A stretch of 11,898 nucleotides of DNA from a virus, in the IMG/VR virus record IMGVR_UViG_3300045988_036506, one strand, 5' to 3'. The notes below the pieces were generated by a model, which had not been told where the DNA came from, made no database searches, and worked only from the letters and a program-made list of their open reading frames with translations. This document shows positions 1 to 11,898 of this stretch, piece by piece. Position numbers and translations under genes: made by a program. Positions within the stretch are counted from its first letter, which is position 1. Each line of letters opens with the position of its first letter.

Positions 1-62
1 AAAGGTACACTAGGCACCCAAATTTAACATTTCCCAACAAAATTTAACTCTAATTAAAACAG

Positions 63-164
63 TTTGGCACGCTTTTTGCTGCGAGCCGGATTTACGATTC
101 TTTAACACACTTTGGCACACTTTGGCACGCTTTTTGCTGCGAGCCGGATTTACGATTCTTTAAC
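63..164. repeat. 44-bp perfect direct repeat inside the ITR, 2 copies (63..106 and 121..164); mirrored at 11735..11836
   Basis: TTTGGCACGCTTTTTGCTGCGAGCCGGATTTACGATTCTTTAAC is read twice. A third partial TTTGGCAC lies at 111..118 between the copies. Confidence 0.95.
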
Positions 165-218
165 GCATTTAACGCATTTAACACATTTAACACATTTAAC
201 ACATTTAACACATTTAGC
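165..218. repeat. 9-bp tandem repeat array, 6 units, inside the ITR; mirrored at 11681..11734
   Basis: The units are GCATTTAAC x2, ACATTTAAC x3 and ACATTTAGC x1, head to tail. Isolated ATTTAAC copies also occur at 22..28 and 42..48. Confidence 0.95.
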
Positions 219-258
219 ACACCGTTACTTTTGTTAAACTTTCACAAAAATAATGTTT

Positions 259-308
259 CAAATGTTTCACGTGGAACAGTGGCGACAAATGTTTCACGTG
301 AAACAAAT
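259..308. promoter_or_regulatory. Two copies of the CACGTG-centred motif (reverse complement of CACGTGAAACATTT) in ITR-L, a putative protein-binding site
   Basis: CAAATGTTTCACGTGGAACA lies at 259..278 and AAATGTTTCACGTGAAACAAATG at 288..308. GTTTCACGTGAAAC at 291..304 is a perfect 14-bp palindrome. The two cores are 27 bp apart and lie about 60-110 bp upstream of the left promoter. Confidence 0.6.
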
Positions 309-367
309 GAGGGGTGAATTGTTAAAAAGATTAAAATTAAAACTTTTACACTATTTAACAAAAATAA

Positions 368-1481: not shown

Positions 1482-1522
1482 AAAGAAAACAGGTGGTAAC
1501 AACTTTACCACCTGTTTTCTTT
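1482..1522. terminator. Bidirectional intrinsic terminator between the convergent arms
   Basis: AAAGAAAACAGGTGGTA (1482..1498), loop acaactt, then TACCACCTGTTTTCTTT (1506..1522) form a perfect 17-bp stem. The A/T-rich arm ends supply a U-tract in both directions. The right arm abuts the stop codon of the minus-strand 510-aa gene. Confidence 0.85.
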
Positions 1523-3054
1523 TATAAATAAACGCCTGTTTCCAACTGATTTATAATATCGTTGTACTCGTCAACTAACAAATTTGCAGCGTTCAAATTC
1601 ACGTTTTCAAACTGTGCAAACCCTGTAACGTCTTTTACTGTTACGTTTTCCTGTGTGTTGTTTACAGGAACGTTTACGGTTAAATTTTCAGTAATTAAAA
1701 CGTAAGGTTCTAAACCGTACAAAATTTGTTCGTTCCATTGTTCACCGCCAACAACGTTTAAATCTGTGCCCAAACGGTAAATAACATCACGTGACAACGA
1801 AAAACTTTCAAGTTGGAACGTTACACCATCACACGACAACAACGCCACGGCATCACCTGTAATCACGTTTACTTTGATAGATAAATTAATCGTTTTACCG
1901 ATGTAATTATTATCAATAGAAACAACGCCACGGCACGGGATAAACATTTGAATCTGTGCGTTATAGTCTTCATTATTGCCGTTTGCACCTGTTAGTTCAA
2001 CGTTGCCGAAATCAAGTAACATTATGTCACTTTCGGGGTATTTAACCGTTATGCCCGTGTTGTAGTTACCGCATTTCAAAACATCGTCACCGCCAACAGG
2101 AACGGGTGCAAAGATTCTTTTAATACGGTTCACATATTCACCCAAATTCACCTCAGAATAAGTTGTGCCCGTATCGCTTTCGCCCGTTGGCTTAAAGAAA
2201 CGTTTCTTTGCGAACTCGTCTAAGTTTTCCAACGTAACGATATAAACGTTTATTGCACCGTAATTTTTAATCGTTGGCGGTTGCACTACATCGGCATTTG
2301 CATAAACCGTTAAATCTGTTGCACCCGATGTTAATTTAAATGTTACAGTGCCCGTTTGCTTATCTTCTGAAATTGTGCCGTTACTTACAACTGTATTACC
2401 GTTGTTATTAGTGAAATTTGCCTGTATCTCGGTTAATTCCGCATTCGGGTTCGCTTTGAAATTAAACGTGTAACTTTGCCTCGTCTTCACTTTTACGGGT
2501 TTATCGCCTACAATTTCGCAATTTGTCAAACTGTAATCTACTGCGATATAATTACCCAAAAGATATTCACCGTTTATAATAACCGATTCCGTTGCAATAG
2601 GAACAATAATTGTTGCCGTTTGGTCGTTAACGGTCATATTGTATGTTTCACCCCCGTAAGTTATTGTAGGTGTACCGTTAAACATTCCCTGTGCCTTTCC
2701 CTCAACTGTTACGGTGTAATTTGTTTTACTTGCCACCGCTTTTGCAGTAGTGTTTGCAATATTGTTCGTTATTTGCAGTTCCTTTGCACCAGAAACAAAT
2801 TTACCTGTTATTGTGATTTCGTCATCGCTAGAGCAATAAACAGTAAGTGTTGCAACGTTGCCCGAAACATTAAACGGTGTATCTTCAATCCAATAGCCAT
2901 CCCAATTTTGATAACTAGCTTTTAAATCGGTAAATGTTCCATCACCGTTGCCCGTTACCGTTATATCGAAATGGTTGGAATCTGCTCCCTGTTTGTCGGT
3001 TATTGTAACGTCACCCGTTAACCCCGTTGTATCATAAGTTAATAAATTAGCCAT
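1522..3054 (-). CDS. Tail or receptor-binding structural protein (510 aa), last gene of the late operon
   Basis: This is the largest structural ORF. The N-terminal ~260 aa is T/N/G/V-rich, beta-strand-like, and appears to form about three tandem modules that each end in an alternating pattern (DEITITGKF, ESVIINGEY, ATDLTVYANAD). The C-terminal ~250 aa is a distinct domain. The functional call is positional and compositional only. Confidence 0.55.
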   Translation of the reverse strand: MANLLTYDTTGLTGDVTITDKQGADSNHFDITVTGNGDGTFTDLKASYQNWDGYWIEDTPFNVSGNVATLTVYCSSDDEITITGKFVSGAKELQITNNIANTTAKAVASKTNYTVTVEGKAQGMFNGTPTITYGGETYNMTVNDQTATIIVPIATESVIINGEYLLGNYIAVDYSLTNCEIVGDKPVKVKTRQSYTFNFKANPNAELTEIQANFTNNNGNTVVSNGTISEDKQTGTVTFKLTSGATDLTVYANADVVQPPTIKNYGAINVYIVTLENLDEFAKKRFFKPTGESDTGTTYSEVNLGEYVNRIKRIFAPVPVGGDDVLKCGNYNTGITVKYPESDIMLLDFGNVELTGANGNNEDYNAQIQMFIPCRGVVSIDNNYIGKTINLSIKVNVITGDAVALLSCDGVTFQLESFSLSRDVIYRLGTDLNVVGGEQWNEQILYGLEPYVLITENLTVNVPVNNTQENVTVKDVTGFAQFENVNLNAANLLVDEYNDIINQLETGVYL

Positions 3055-5344: not shown

Positions 5345-6410
5345 CTTTGTTTTCTTTTTCTTCTTTTTCTTCTGTTTCTTCTGTTTCCGTTTCTGTTTCT
5401 TCTGTTTCTGTTTCTGTTTCTTCTGTTTCTTCTGTTTCTTCTGTTTCTGTTTCCGTTTCTTCTGTTTCTTGCGTTTCTTCTGTTTCGTTTTCCGTTACAG
5501 TGTCAACGTCTTCTGTATCGGTGTGGTCGTGCCCGTCTTCTGTGGCTTTGAGCAACGATAAATAATTTTCGTGTTCAATCTTCCAGCTAGACCCCAAAGT
5601 TACGGTTATGTCCGTGCCGAACATTTCGTTAACACGTTTCACACCCTCAACACGTTCATTTAGCATTGAATCAACGAACGGCATTAAAGCGTCAATATTC
5701 ATTGAAACCTCTTGCGTGTTCAAACGTTCACGTTTCATATTATAGTTTGCATTCAAACCTAAATCGTTGAACATTGATGCTTTGTAATACTGCAAAAGTT
5801 CAATTAATTGCCCGATTTGCTGGTTTCCCTGTGTCGGTGGGGTCTGCAGGTTAACACCTTTGAAAAAGGCATTTTCCCCGATTACTGAGAAATCACCGTT
5901 CAAAATCTTCTGCAAAAAAGATTCTGCGCTTTGTTTTGTTTTATCATCACTAGCAGAAATAAGCATTGTGATTCTAGTTAAAATACTAGCCAAATTAAGC
6001 GTTATTGTTGCGTCGGTGTAAAGAACGCCATATTTGCCAATTAACGGCAAAAGTGAATCTGCAAACGGTGTGTTGTTGATAACGACAATATCGGAATCAA
6101 TTTTAAACGTTTTGTTCACATTCAACCACGGGTTTGCTACAACGTAATATTTGCCGTGATAATAGGCATCACATTCACCAACCCGTGTTCCATTCAGTGC
6201 ATACAGTTCACCGTTCACTTCTGCTATTCCAACGTTACCCGATGTCTGCAGAATCTTTTCAAGTTCAACGGGCGGCATCGTTTCGGGTGCGCCCGTATAT
6301 TCAAACATCCTTGAAGTCATACAAAGAACTCGTTGCATAAACGTGAATAATGCTGAATCTTTGTTTTTAACTTCTGTTTGATACCTGTTGTATAAGTTTT
6401 CTTTCTCCAT
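5334..6410 (-). CDS. Portal (head-tail connector) protein, phi29 gp10-like, with an acidic Glu/Thr repeat C-terminal tail
   Basis: [31 protein letters not shown] resembles phi29 gp10 [57 protein letters not shown] resembles [26 protein letters not shown]. Both phi29 strings are recalled from memory. The last ~60 aa read ...[52 protein letters not shown]. Confidence 0.85.
   Translation of the reverse strand: [358 protein letters not shown]
5345..5490. repeat. Imperfect GTTTCT / TCT (6- and 3-nt) tandem repeat tract encoding the portal acidic tail
   Basis: The plus strand reads ...ttctgtttcttctgtttccgtttctgtttcttctgtttctgtttctgtttcttctgtttc.... It also generates the spurious F/C-rich and S/V-rich plus-strand ORFs 5142..5561 and 5338..5565. 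Confidence 0.9.
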
Positions 6411-6671: not shown

Positions 6672-6715
6672 AACGGGGGAAAAGTGTTCCACGTGAAACA
6701 TTTTTAACCCCCGTT
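6672..6715 (-). terminator. Terminator hairpin after the early operon, with a CACGTGAAACATTT motif copy embedded in the stem
   Basis: AACGGGGG (6672..6679) pairs with CCCCCGTT (6708..6715). The interior TGTTCCACGTGAAACA is largely self-complementary. On the minus strand the hairpin is followed by UUAUUUGG. It lies 9 nt after the ATPase stop codon. Confidence 0.7.
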
Positions 6716-7864: not shown

Positions 7865-10072
7865 TTATTCTTTCTTTAATCTGATTCCCATTAAATAATT
7901 AATATAAAGAACTGAAAGACTTAAAGTGTACCCCGTTGGCTCTAAGTGAACACCAGTTAACGTGTCGTAACTTGAAACCGTACCTTTGTAATCTTTTATC
8001 GTTCCCGTCTGTTCATAATCAATATATGTGTGAATGTTCTTACCTGTTGCCGATGGCGGTATATCTAGATAATTTGTGAATGCGTCAAATATCCCACTTT
8101 CACCAAACGTTTCTAACATATACGGGATAGCAGATTTTTTGTTAACGCCCGAAACGGTCATTGAGTAATCGTAATCTTTGCCGTTTACTGTAAGGGCGTT
8201 TTCTTCCTGTACCATATAGCGTTTTGCACCTAAAGTTTTGAAACGGGTGTAACGCCCCTCATAGTCCCAAACCCCCAACGGTTTTGCGATTCCCCTTATC
8301 GTGACGGGTTCAACCTTTTCAAACGGTATTTTATGATGCTTACAGGCGGCACGTAATTTTCTTTGCGCTAAATCGTTGTAGGCCTTGAAATATTCTTTGT
8401 GTGCATCACCGTTCATTATTTTAACGGAATCTGTGTCACTGTATATGTAATCGTCACCACATTCCGAAATACCCGTAAAAAGGTTGCGTCTGGCATAAGC
8501 GGTAACATAAATACCCCACGGGTAAAACAAAAAGCGGTTTTTACTATCATTATATTTATTTAGCATTACTAATTGTTTTTCGCCTGTAAGGTGTTCAATA
8601 TCCCACGTTTCACCATCACATAAAATTTCATCACGCAACGGGTTTGTAACACACATACCGTAACAACTGTTCAGCATTTCTTTGCTATTCAAATACTCAA
8701 CCTCTTTTCCCTTAACACCTTTTAATTTTGTTTTCATTTCATACAGGTGCAGAATAGATTCTACAAATTCGGTCGGCAAATATTCTTTTCGGTAGCATAT
8801 CATTCGCCCGATTCTTATTTGTTCCCACGTGTAAAACTGTGAAAACACTTTGTAATCTATTTCTGTAATAGTCATACATATTTTCTTAGCACAAACCAAA
8901 CGCCCGTTGTTTTCGGAAACATTTTCTTTCACGAAGCATTTACTAACAGAAATTGGATTCTCGTTTTCTGATTTTGCAAAAATGTTTGTTATCTCTACAT
9001 CAAACACGCAACAGAATTTACTACACATAAACTCAAATTGTTTCATTGATTTAACAGGAACAACAACACCCGTGCTCATCGGAAACTTTTCTGAAACCAT
9101 CACATACGGGTAACTACTGGTAAAATCGTAACTGTCTACGTTTTCTATAACTTCATCGGTATATTTTGCGTTGGCGTGTGTAAAACCGCCCGAAAACGCC
9201 CGTTGTAACATTGCAAATTCTTCCATACCTGTTATATTCAAAGAATGAATCTTATCAATGTATTTAAAGTTTGGAATCGTTTTGCCTGTTTCGTCAGTTG
9301 CCTTAAAACATACCGAACGGCAATATTTACGCACAAACCCCGTTTTTGTAACCGGTAAACGTGTTATTCCTTTGTACTGTTCGATTAATTCCTGTATGTA
9401 ACACATCACCACTTTTATATCATTCAAGCAATAACCAATTTCTTTTTGCGTTAACGGTGTTCTACTGTGACGTAACAAACTGTAATCTAAATCACCTACC
9501 AACTTTTCACATTTATATTTGTGAAGCTGTTCACCCAATTTCGCCAACGAATAACCCGAAAGCAAATAAGAACATCGGAACTCTAGACCCGTTTTTGTTA
9601 CACCGTAAATCGGTTTACGCAAATCTATTGAGAAAACTTTTTCCCAATCTAACATTTCACGGAAAAATTGGAACTCGTATGCCAAATTGTGAACGTATAT
9701 GATAATGCGTTTCTTTGGGCAAAGTTTCAATATATCCACGATTTCGGATAACATTTGCAAAAATTCATCCCACGTTCTGCCAATTATGCAAAAACCGTTT
9801 ATTCCAAATTGCCAAACATACATTAAAGAACATTTTTCCATTTTGGTTTGCTTGCCGCCTAATTTCATATAACGTTCGTAACTGTATGTTTCCCCGTCTT
9901 CATCCCTGTAAAATGAAGTTGTTTCAATATCGAAAGATACAGGCACGTTTAAGAACTTTTCGCCCTTATTGTTGCCTGTAAAATTCTTTTCATTCACCGC
10001 CAAAGATAAAACCTTTGCAATATCTTTAGGCGTGTAAATTTCTGTATGTAGTTCAAAGGGTATTTTCTTCAT
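7865..10072 (-). CDS. Protein-primed family-B DNA polymerase (735 aa)
   Basis: All hallmark motifs are present in order. They are ExoI FDIETT (D48/E50), ExoII HNLAYEFQF (N129), ExoIII YCLNDIK (Y214/D218), FSGGF (the YxGG/A equivalent), motif A DFTSSYP (D316), motif B KEMLNSCYG (K464), motif C YSDTDS (nt 8426..8443, checked against the DNA) and KxY as GAKRYM (K617). Long inserts between motifs A-B and B-C fit TPR1/TPR2-type regions. Confidence 0.95.
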   Translation of the reverse strand: MKKIPFELHTEIYTPKDIAKVLSLAVNEKNFTGNNKGEKFLNVPVSFDIETTSFYRDEDGETYSYERYMKLGGKQTKMEKCSLMYVWQFGINGFCIIGRTWDEFLQMLSEIVDILKLCPKKRIIIYVHNLAYEFQFFREMLDWEKVFSIDLRKPIYGVTKTGLEFRCSYLLSGYSLAKLGEQLHKYKCEKLVGDLDYSLLRHSRTPLTQKEIGYCLNDIKVVMCYIQELIEQYKGITRLPVTKTGFVRKYCRSVCFKATDETGKTIPNFKYIDKIHSLNITGMEEFAMLQRAFSGGFTHANAKYTDEVIENVDSYDFTSSYPYVMVSEKFPMSTGVVVPVKSMKQFEFMCSKFCCVFDVEITNIFAKSENENPISVSKCFVKENVSENNGRLVCAKKICMTITEIDYKVFSQFYTWEQIRIGRMICYRKEYLPTEFVESILHLYEMKTKLKGVKGKEVEYLNSKEMLNSCYGMCVTNPLRDEILCDGETWDIEHLTGEKQLVMLNKYNDSKNRFLFYPWGIYVTAYARRNLFTGISECGDDYIYSDTDSVKIMNGDAHKEYFKAYNDLAQRKLRAACKHHKIPFEKVEPVTIRGIAKPLGVWDYEGRYTRFKTLGAKRYMVQEENALTVNGKDYDYSMTVSGVNKKSAIPYMLETFGESGIFDAFTNYLDIPPSATGKNIHTYIDYEQTGTIKDYKGTVSSYDTLTGVHLEPTGYTLSLSVLYINYLMGIRLKKE

Positions 10073-10743
10073 TATAAACCAAATTTTTCAAATTCTGATA
10101 GAATCTTTTTTAACGGTTCATCCGTTTTGAAATGGTCAACACCGTTCACGAAAGCCTCTGAATTCGGGTCTTTTGCTATTTGTTCGATAGCTGCATCTAA
10201 GGCGTTTTCAATTTTAACGGCATCGTCTTCGATTTGGTCGGACACGTCACGGGATTCTTGTTCAAGTTCACCCGTAAAATCTTTGTATTGCATTAAGTAT
10301 TGTTCCAAAAATCGTTCATCGGAAACACTTGCAATTTTACCCATCAATTTGTCTTGCATCAACTTAAATTCTTCATCATTTAATTTGTAAGACTTCTTTA
10401 AATGGTTTGAATATTCACGTGTACCACTTGCCGTTGATGTAGGCTGTTGCAAAAATGAAATCGCTTTGGAATATTCGATTTTTAAATCGTTCCAATCGTG
10501 TTTCATCGAAAACTTTGTGAATCGCTTAATATCACCCTTATTTAACGCAACAACTGCGGGCGAAACAAAACCAGACCTTTCCACATTCTGAATGCGCCTG
10601 TTTGCCTGTTGAAACACACGGGCGATTTCTTTGCGCAAATAGCCACGGGATTCTATTGCATCCATAATTTGCTTGTCAACGTGTATTTTTGCCGTTGATG
10701 CAAACGTTCTTTTTGAAAACCCAATCGGATTTAACTTTGCCAT
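10072..10743 (-). CDS. Putative terminal protein (223 aa)
   Basis: It lies immediately upstream of the polymerase, with a 1-nt stop/start overlap, as in phi29 gene 3 and gene 2. The N-terminal half is basic and the C-terminal half strongly acidic (ELEQESRDVSDQIEDDAVKIE...). The C-terminus KILSEFEKFGL recalls phi29 TP KILSYLEQY...KGF. Similarity is weak and recalled, and the priming residue is not identified. Confidence 0.6.
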   Translation of the reverse strand: MAKLNPIGFSKRTFASTAKIHVDKQIMDAIESRGYLRKEIARVFQQANRRIQNVERSGFVSPAVVALNKGDIKRFTKFSMKHDWNDLKIEYSKAISFLQQPTSTASGTREYSNHLKKSYKLNDEEFKLMQDKLMGKIASVSDERFLEQYLMQYKDFTGELEQESRDVSDQIEDDAVKIENALDAAIEQIAKDPNSEAFVNGVDHFKTDEPLKKILSEFEKFGL

Positions 10744-10838: not shown

Positions 10839-11204
10839 CTACTTATCTACAAAGGTAATACCGTAACACTTTTTGGTGTGCGATTCATATTCATAAATCG
10901 TGTAACCAACTTTGTTTGCTTTGATAGCGTCAACCGCCTCACTATTAGCGAGAATCTCTCGCACCGTGTCACCTGTGAACTGTGGCAAATTCACAAGACG
11001 CTTGTTTTCTGCGTCAATAATTACAGGTGAATCGCCCAACTGTGATTTGTGAACGTACATACCATTGACAGGGTGTACTACATCACCGCCACCGTCTTTT
11101 TTACTGTTGTAAATGTCGGTCAACTTCACAAACGGAAAATCGGTCGTATCAATACCAAAACTAGTCTTATTGAAAGTACTAGCAAAACTAAAACCCTTAG
11201 CCAT
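10839..11204 (-). CDS. Early protein (121 aa), possibly a single-stranded or double-stranded DNA-binding protein
   Basis: The ORF is clean, with an ATG start and a terminator downstream. Its size and early-operon position parallel phi29 p5 (124 aa). No diagnostic motif was found, so the function is positional inference only. Confidence 0.5.
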   Translation of the reverse strand: MAKGFSFASTFNKTSFGIDTTDFPFVKLTDIYNSKKDGGGDVVHPVNGMYVHKSQLGDSPVIIDAENKRLVNLPQFTGDTVREILANSEAVDAIKANKVGYTIYEYESHTKKCYGITFVDK

Positions 11205-11501: not shown

Positions 11502-11557
11502 TTATTTTCGTTAAAAAGTCTTAAAGAAATAAATTAACTGTTGTTAACACTTGTAAC

Positions 11558-11640
11558 GGTCCACGTGAAACATTTGTAACATCACCCCTCATTTGTTTCA
11601 CGTGAAACATTTGTCGCCACTGTTCCACGTGAAACATTTG
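11558..11640. promoter_or_regulatory. Three copies of the CACGTGAAACATTT motif at the right end, one outside the ITR
   Basis: GGTCCACGTGAAACATTT lies at 11558..11575, inboard of the ITR boundary, with no counterpart on the left. The ITR copies lie at 11591..11611 and 11621..11640. The cores are at 11562, 11599 and 11626. Confidence 0.6.
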
Positions 11641-11898
11641 AAACATTATTTTTGTGAAAGTTTAACAAAAGTAACGGTGTGCTAAATGTGTTAAATGTGT
11701 TAAATGTGTTAAATGTGTTAAATGCGTTAAATGCGTTAAAGAATCGTAAATCCGGCTCGCAGCAAAAAGCGTGCCAAAGTGTGCCAAAGTGTGTTAAAGA
11801 ATCGTAAATCCGGCTCGCAGCAAAAAGCGTGCCAAACTGTTTTAATTAGAGTTAAATTTTGTTGGGAAATGTTAAATTTGGGTGCCTAGTGTACCTTT
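11582..11898. repeat. Right inverted terminal repeat (ITR-R), 317 bp
   Basis: It is the exact reverse complement of 1..317. It contains the mirrored 9-bp array (11681..11734) and the mirrored 44-bp direct repeats (11735..11778 and 11793..11836). Confidence 0.97.

Follow-up and report, generated by a model that had tools for sequence, protein, structure and literature searches.

The stretch of DNA analysed here, the 11,898-nucleotide sequence of the IMG/VR virus record IMGVR_UViG_3300045988_036506 (in the following, the window), is the complete linear genome of a phi29-like mini-podovirus, a phage type that is common in gut metagenomes. Directly upstream of its gene for a protein-primed family B DNA polymerase (735 amino acids (aa); minus strand, 7865..10072) lies a gene for a protein of 223 aa (minus strand, 10072..10743), and we propose, with a probability of roughly 0.7, that this smaller protein serves as terminal protein in replication of the phi29 style, which probably starts with deoxyadenosine monophosphate (dAMP). 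A previous interpretation of the same DNA (in the following, the sequence-only reading) had named the 223-aa protein as terminal protein candidate; this remains the best-supported interpretation, on evidence which is contextual throughout.

The evidence concerns gene position, protein charge, the genome ends and the choice of candidates. The gene is located upstream of the polymerase gene in four lineages, which, as far as sequence comparison reaches, argues for a terminal protein. A charge layout that is kept across the protein family matches that of the phi29 terminal protein and, by analogy, lends the proposal further support. The inverted terminal repeats and their conserved, reiterated terminus appear to behave like the origins of protein-primed genomes. 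Finally, there is no better candidate, as no other unassigned protein of the window is common to the cultured relatives.

The candidate protein and its family

The candidate consists of a basic N-terminal part and an acidic C-terminal part, and is predicted to be entirely helical. Residues 1-111 carry a net charge of +10 (isoelectric point (pI) 10.2) and residues 112-223 a net charge of -11 (pI 4.6), in agreement with the two contrasting halves that had been described from the sequence. The alignment-based AlphaFold2 model is all-helical, with a mean predicted local distance difference test score (pLDDT) of 84.9 and a predicted template modelling score (pTM) of 0.76, and includes a helix of 52 residues (140-191), while the model predicted from the single sequence reached a pLDDT of 43 and was not usable. 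With 3315 relatives in a collection of 5.8 billion proteins and a confident alignment-based fold, the 223-aa open reading frame (ORF) is not a chance ORF. The relatives fall into 197 clusters at 50% identity and are 197-235 aa long, mostly 200-235 aa. In IMG/VR, 334 loci encode a relative of the candidate; this locus search was seeded with a 21-member subset, the alignment of 113 family members being too diverse to serve as a seed.

R50 and S61 do not vary across the 113-member alignment, all but one of the members (112/113) have S103, and A47, N48, A63, F78, Y91, A94, F97, T102, S103 and G107 are each conserved in at least 90%. The conserved core spans residues 30-110 (minus strand, 10414..10656) and follows the pattern KEIxRVFQxANRRIQN...SPA...F...Y..A..FL..PTSTAxG. 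Its most widely kept motif is the TSTASG loop from T102 to G107 (minus strand, 10423..10440; local pLDDT 97), in which S103 is a candidate priming site. The C-terminal 100 residues are poorly conserved; here, at the start of the long acidic helix, the motif YLMQY (Y149 to Y153; minus strand, 10285..10299) offers alternative candidate priming tyrosines. The charge layout extends to the family as a whole: the N-terminal part is positive in 97% of the 113 members (mean +9.0), and the C-terminal part, despite its sequence drift, is negative in 93% (mean -8.3).

The family gene is found directly upstream of the polymerase gene in four divergent lineages, namely the gut clade, Astrithrvirus, Clostridium phage HM2 and Amedibacillus phage AD70P2. 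The family profile matches the ORF at this position in astrithr, Phanie, Vibrio phage K58 g2 and Pectobacterium phage DU_PP_III at 1e-21 to 1e-26, in HM2 at 6e-10 and in AD70P2 at 8e-06 by hidden Markov model (HMM) search, with an hhalign probability of 43% for the latter. The candidate and the Astrithrvirus homologues have the motifs KE..R...ANKR, SPA, TST..G and QYL in common, and a [TG][ST]T..G motif is present in the HM2 and AD70P2 homologues. Among the proteins of the early region, only the candidate family and the polymerase are common to the gut clade and Astrithrvirus. A megablast search of the region against 50,697 phage records gave no match, and a tblastn search with the candidate in phage records found only the homologue of Vibrio phage K58 g2, and this weakly (E 0.4). 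The HM2 homologue is an unannotated ORF of 312 aa (1150-2088) which contains the family core twice in tandem, with an xST..G loop in each copy. In the GenBank record of DU_PP_III nothing is annotated upstream of the polymerase, where a family member of 210 aa is encoded (468-1100, HMM E 1.6e-21).

The candidate and polymerase genes overlap by a TAATG stop/start (minus strand, 10070..10074), as the sequence-only reading had stated. The junction reads GGTTTATAATGAAG; the candidate gene ends in TTA TAA, and the TAA stop and the ATG of the polymerase share one base. TAATG is kept in 82 of the 90 related loci, and an ATGA overlap is found in three more. Adjacent genes of the window generally abut or overlap, and no Shine-Dalgarno sequence is present at any gene start of the genome; the overlap is thus compatible with coupled translation, in an unspecific way.

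The 223-aa protein might instead be a replication accessory and not the primer, with the true terminal protein being another product, for example the 121-aa early protein encoded directly upstream of it (minus strand, 10839..11204). By analogy with phi29 p6, p1 and p16.7, such an accessory could be an initiation factor that binds the origin or the genome ends, or an organiser of the nucleoid or the membrane. The conserved basic helical domain with its ANRR motif could bind DNA, and the candidate lacks homology to any proven terminal protein; a conserved acidic C-terminal part is, however, unexpected for a simple DNA binder, and the linkage of the gene to the polymerase gene holds across four lineages. 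The 121-aa gene is likewise conserved beside the candidate gene throughout the gut clade, but no match to its product was detected in Astrithrvirus, which is equally in need of a primer. The other unassigned ORFs are only 55-95 aa long, and we know of no terminal protein as short as this. An accessory role accordingly appears unlikely to us.

A further function to be weighed is that of a capsid scaffolding protein, which would be a neighbour of the polymerase only by way of one long co-directional string of genes. One strand does carry the replication, packaging and structural genes, and no scaffolding protein is otherwise assigned in the window genome; moreover, a helical build, a long helix such as the one of 52 residues and an acidic C-terminal part are common in scaffolding proteins. 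Nevertheless, in HM2 and AD70P2 the gene remains linked to that of the polymerase and apart from those of the capsid and the connector, although the layout of the structural genes differs between the genomes; a scaffold would more usually be encoded immediately upstream of the capsid gene, a position taken here by the 189-aa gene. In the window, a palindromic motif at 6685-6700 also divides the polymerase/ATPase block from the structural block. On these grounds, we consider a scaffolding function very unlikely.

Comparison with known terminal proteins

Several results weigh against a terminal protein, and most of them concern similarity to the known representatives, which the sequence-only reading had called marginal and which is in fact undetectable. 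Neither the candidate nor any of the 113 family members matches Pfam PF05435, hhalign against a profile of 28 phi29 terminal protein family members gave a probability of 0.4%, and BLASTP of the candidate against phi29 p3 gave an E-value of 0.19. A search of PDB sequences with the candidate profile returned only helical-bundle noise over the acidic half. Foldseek of the candidate model gave a best E-value of 0.19 in the PDB without returning 2EX3, which is not a strong negative because Foldseek is weak on helical bundles, and only uncharacterised podovirus proteins in BFVD. The family likewise has no profile similarity to gp06 of phage phiCPV4 (hhalign probability 0.2%). Every database homologue of the candidate is named "hypothetical protein", and no experimental identification of a DNA-linked protein in the clade was found. 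Furthermore, the conserved half of the family is its basic N-terminal part, whereas the priming serine of phi29 is located in the acidic half. The stop/start overlap, put forward earlier as part of the expected signature of a terminal protein, is well conserved, but it is weak and unspecific evidence in a genome whose genes are tightly packed throughout. As the sequence, profile and fold tests are all negative, the candidate is not to be filed in the phi29 terminal protein family; the family has no model of its own in Pfam, PHROGs or NCBIfam.

The likeness to phi29 p3 and p2 (PDB 2EX3) lies in organisation, and comprises the gene order of primer followed by polymerase, all catalytic residues of the polymerase, and an AAAG-type terminus. 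The charge of the phi29 terminal protein across its three domains is +7, +4 and -10, the same progression from basic to acidic as in the candidate; the phi29 protein is all-helical, as is predicted for the candidate. Apart from the missing sequence, profile and fold similarity, the two proteins differ in length (223 aa against 266 aa for p3), and the window differs from phi29 in a polymerase that is 160 aa longer and has Glu in place of Asp66.

The terminal proteins of tectiviruses such as PRD1 and Bam35 are protein primers, too, which are encoded upstream of a protein-primed family B polymerase in genomes with inverted terminal repeats. Their initiation takes place at an internal template base and is followed by sliding or jumping back. 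The linking residue is a tyrosine, and for this reason Y149/Y153 stays among the candidates in the window protein. The virion type of tectiviruses is unrelated to that of the window phage, and beyond this general background the comparison with them consists of the negative Pfam and PDB scans.

In phage phiCPV4 of the Guelinviridae, no terminal protein was found by BLAST, and the gene adjacent to the polymerase was assigned by its predicted structure and by physical characteristics resembling the phi29 terminal protein; a protease-sensitive mobility shift of terminal DNA fragments was also demonstrated (PMC3362512). This arrangement resembles that of the window, with a basic/acidic protein of 238 aa (gp06; charge +16 in the N-terminal and -9 in the C-terminal part) upstream of a 727-aa polymerase (gp07) whose motif A is Dx2SSYP. 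The phage differs in the lack of profile similarity between gp06 and the window family, in an ExoII motif that keeps Asp, in its Gram-positive host (Clostridium perfringens) and in its 18-kb genome.

The cultured phages closest in organisation are the Astrithrvirus-type mini-podoviruses (astrithr, Phanie, DU_PP_III and Vibrio phage K58 g2), whose gene set and gene order are those of the window throughout. The gene pair corresponds to gp02 and gp03 in astrithr and to PHANIE_0020 and PHANIE_0030 in Phanie. The polymerases of these phages (701-708 aa, 42-46% identity) contain the ExoII Glu, the upstream homologue of about 200 aa is 23-26% identical to the candidate, and the genomes of 10.4-11.9 kb have inverted terminal repeats. 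In contrast to them, the window has no similarity at the DNA level, adds the 121-aa early gene and about 20 residues after ExoI, ends in an A-type instead of a G-type terminus, and belongs to a phage of an apparently different, uncultured host. A review of 2024 credits Astrid, DU_PP_III and Phanie with a counterpart of the terminal protein, although the gene that is meant is not apparent from it (PMC11476376, section 2.6). Cultured relatives with a large polymerase, the ExoII Glu and an upstream protein of about 200 aa are thus already known and described as phi29-like replicators. What is new is that the candidate defines a large unnamed family, that the charge layout of this family, and not its sequence, parallels that of proven and suspected terminal proteins, and that there is a conserved AAAGGTACAC terminus together with a short list of candidate linking residues.

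The polymerase, the genome ends and a proposed model of initiation

The assignment of the polymerase is supported by Pfam (DNA_pol_B_2, PF03175; 60.1 bits at a cut-off of 25.8), by PHROG 1907 (9.6e-72) and by alignment to the phi29 enzyme, which is also its sole match among sequences of solved structures in the PDB (6.6e-09). In a MAFFT alignment, the exonuclease residues D48/E50, N129/E133 and Y214/D218 correspond to phi29 D12/E14, N62/D66 and Y165/D169, and the polymerisation residues D316, K464, D546/D548 and K617/Y619 to phi29 D249, K383, D456/D458 and K498/Y500. The sequence-only reading holds on each of these points: every exonuclease and polymerase motif is present, the enzyme is about 160 aa longer than that of phi29 (735 aa, where the phi29 record has 572 aa and the usual numbering 575 aa), and ExoII reads NLAYE (N129 to E133; minus strand, 9674..9688), with Glu at the position of phi29 Asp66. 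It had, however, presented the enlarged polymerase and the Glu as unusual, and both are ordinary in the clade. We aligned 17 related polymerases, from gut-metagenome relatives, Astrithrvirus, Clostridium phage HM2, Amedibacillus phage AD70P2 and a human-faecal phage record. These are 681-752 aa long, except for one of 627 aa that is interrupted by masked bases, and all 17 have ExoII as HN(L/F)x(Y/F)EFQ(F/Y), the Glu included; 90 close relatives read HNL(A/S/T)(Y/F)E here without exception. The large size and the ExoII Glu are therefore, by sequence comparison, traits of the clade. Since it is found clade-wide in the aligned relatives, the Glu appears to be an old, conserved and chemically conservative replacement of a metal ligand, and the exonuclease of the window polymerase is presumably active.

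Measured between alignment landmarks, the length differences to the phi29 enzyme are +36 residues before ExoI, +31 between ExoI and ExoII, -18 between ExoII and ExoIII, +18 between ExoIII and motif A, +14 between motifs A and B, +9 between motifs B and C, +29 between motif C and KxY, and +41 after KxY. The breakdown given earlier was correct for the roughly 35 residues before ExoI and the longer A-B and B-C spacers; the approximately 70 residues that it had placed after KxY in fact follow motif C, and the gain between ExoI and ExoII had been missed. The latter includes an insertion of about 27 aa after ExoI (residues 54-80; minus strand, 9833..9913), of which approximately 20 residues are absent from the Astrithrvirus polymerases. 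The segments that hold TPR1 and TPR2 in phi29 are present and, by these landmarks, slightly longer (the A-B and B-C segments).

Such an enlarged enzyme, with 36 additional N-terminal residues and about 70 after motif C, could in principle dispense with a separate terminal protein, either with the priming residue on an extension of its own, as known from linear plasmids of yeast and mitochondria, or by de novo priming, as in primer-independent family B polymerases. Fused terminal-protein domains span several hundred residues, whereas the N-terminal extension of the window polymerase is only about 36-45 aa, the excess being spread over many small insertions. The polymerase also groups with the phi29-like phage enzymes and not with pipolins, and the inverted repeats, whose end is fixed and reiterated, are in keeping with a protein primer. 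Priming without a separate terminal protein is therefore highly improbable.

The genome ends bear on the choice of primer as well. Inverted terminal repeats of 317 bp with 100% complementarity are located at both ends of the window (1..317 and 11582..11898, without strand assignment), followed by weaker inverted similarity out to about 415 bp. They far exceed the 6 bp of phi29 and the 18 bp of astrithr, while DU_PP_III has 219 bp. Both repeats have the terminus AAAGGTACAC, the presumed replication origin. At least 13 independently assembled related contigs begin with the identical base and the invariant AAAGGTACAC, after which a conserved TTTAACATTTCCCAAC comes. The conserved physical end of the window phage thus has an AAA reiteration; the phi29 terminus is AAAGTA, and relatives have reiterated termini as well (GG, GGG and TTTT). 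Reiterated ends, as in phi29, Cp-1 and PRD1, permit initiation opposite an internal template base and subsequent sliding back. Four related contigs start with 4-6 A's, instead of three, before GGTACAC; these extra A's could be real heterogeneity from sliding back, or an artefact of the library or assembly.

In the mechanism that we propose, the 223-aa protein would act as the terminal protein, that is, as the protein primer. It would form a heterodimer with the polymerase, with which it is probably made together by termination and reinitiation of translation, given the TAATG overlap and the lack of Shine-Dalgarno sites. The heterodimer would bind the conserved origin at each genome end, where the 3' end of the template is TTTCCATGTG, and the polymerase would link dAMP to the hydroxyl group of a Ser, Thr or Tyr, opposite an internal T of 3'-TTT. 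The complex would then slide back and thereby recover the first base. Subsequently, strand displacement by the same polymerase would replicate the genome of 11.9 kb, and each 5' end would retain one terminal protein. The identity of the primer, dAMP as the linked nucleotide, the sliding back and the linked residue are all inferred.

Candidates for the linking residue are S103 in the TSTxxG loop, the invariant S61, Y149/Y153, or a residue in the acidic C-terminal part. S103 is the most widely kept hydroxyl; at this position, the two HM2 copies have Ser and AD70P2 has Thr. The position of S61 is occupied by Asn or Gln in HM2 and by Thr in DU_PP_III, and a tyrosine of a (Q/E/R)YL motif, corresponding to Y149/Y153, recurs in the Astrithrvirus homologues and AD70P2. 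Selecting the residue by conservation alone was rejected in view of a control on the phi29 family, in which Ser232 is not a conserved column (13 Ser and 7 Thr in 28 automatically aligned sequences) and the best-conserved residues are likewise located in the basic N-terminal region. As conservation alone cannot decide, the residue may also lie in the poorly aligned acidic part. A more far-reaching proposal is that the family is a structurally distinct class of terminal proteins, with the linking residue in the conserved basic N-terminal domain (S103 or S61) and not, as in phi29, in the acidic C-terminal one. It would serve a gut phage lineage that is uncultured and very abundant, and of which the closest members share bins with Gastranaerophilales (Melainabacteria) genomes; we regard it as doubtful and offer it tentatively.

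If the terminal protein function is confirmed, about 200 sequence clusters that are blank in Pfam, PHROGs and NCBIfam would receive a name and a function, and the primer gene would become recognisable in thousands of gut phage contigs of 11-12 kb. The compact pair of polymerase and primer, with its defined origin, would also join the small set that is usable for the replication of linear DNA in vitro. The general picture would be unchanged, as it is familiar that terminal proteins can diverge until they are no longer recognisable, and phi29-like replication has been described for the cultured relatives before.

Genome organisation and possible host

Nearly all genes of the window are located on the minus strand, in the order 55-aa ORF, 121-aa ORF, 223-aa ORF, polymerase, gp16-type packaging ATPase, 64-aa holin-like protein, phi29-type connector, 189-aa ORF, phi29-type major capsid protein, 160-aa ORF and 510-aa tail protein. 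The plus strand carries an M15 endolysin and two small ORFs. The 121-aa protein has no family matches in scans of Pfam, PHROGs and NCBIfam and no similarity to the phi29 single-strand binding protein p5; a role in single-strand binding is possible by its position only. The leaders of the window genes are AT-rich, often with TTAAA 8-15 nucleotides upstream of the start codon, a pattern that fits hosts which initiate translation without Shine-Dalgarno pairing.

The three closest matches in bacterial genome collections are whole-phage contigs in metagenome-assembled genomes of Gastranaerophilales/Melainabacteria from different projects, and a fourth, more distant match is likewise found in such a genome, while more distant relatives occur in Prevotella, Christensenellaceae and Clostridia bins. 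Gastranaerophilales as host is a lead from co-binning only. A literature search on phages of Gastranaerophilales/Melainabacteria found no paper, and we know of no phage described for this group.

The terminal repeats hold a 9-bp unit, TTTAACACA, in seven copies (159-221), a 10-bp unit, CACACTTTGG, in 2.8 copies, and an internal direct repeat of about 58 bp. A palindrome, GTTTCACGTG(A/G)AACA, occurs at six sites of the window (within 264-305, 6685-6700 and 11557-11636), where 0.1 would be expected by chance. Each terminal repeat has two to three of these sites in its inner part, upstream of the early genes, and one site (6685-6700) lies where the ATPase gene and the holin/connector/capsid block are separated by a gap; a similar copy is found in the candidate/polymerase junction of one relative. 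Judged by sequence and placement, the palindrome is a candidate operator or promoter element.

The C-terminus of the connector (5351-5490) contains an acidic ETEETE tandem repeat of variable length, and the connectors of relatives are 328-358 aa long. Many database contigs of about 6.15 kb span the region from the repeat boundary to this tract; as they end there, the tract breaks assemblies, and the contigs were rejected as a separate element. The tail protein (1522-3054) also varies in length, with 510 aa in the window and 692 aa in a relative (8585-10663) whose candidate protein is 97% identical. The window genome is without a separate tail-fibre gene. For its cultured relative Phanie, dependence on a helper myophage for the tail has been reported (PMC11476376), and by analogy a satellite lifestyle may be worth checking for the window phage.

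No phi29-type packaging RNA was detected in the window, where no Rfam family scored above threshold, and a search for tRNA genes was likewise negative. A strong hairpin at 1466-1534, located where the endolysin and tail genes converge, has only spurious sub-threshold Rfam matches and is probably a bidirectional terminator.

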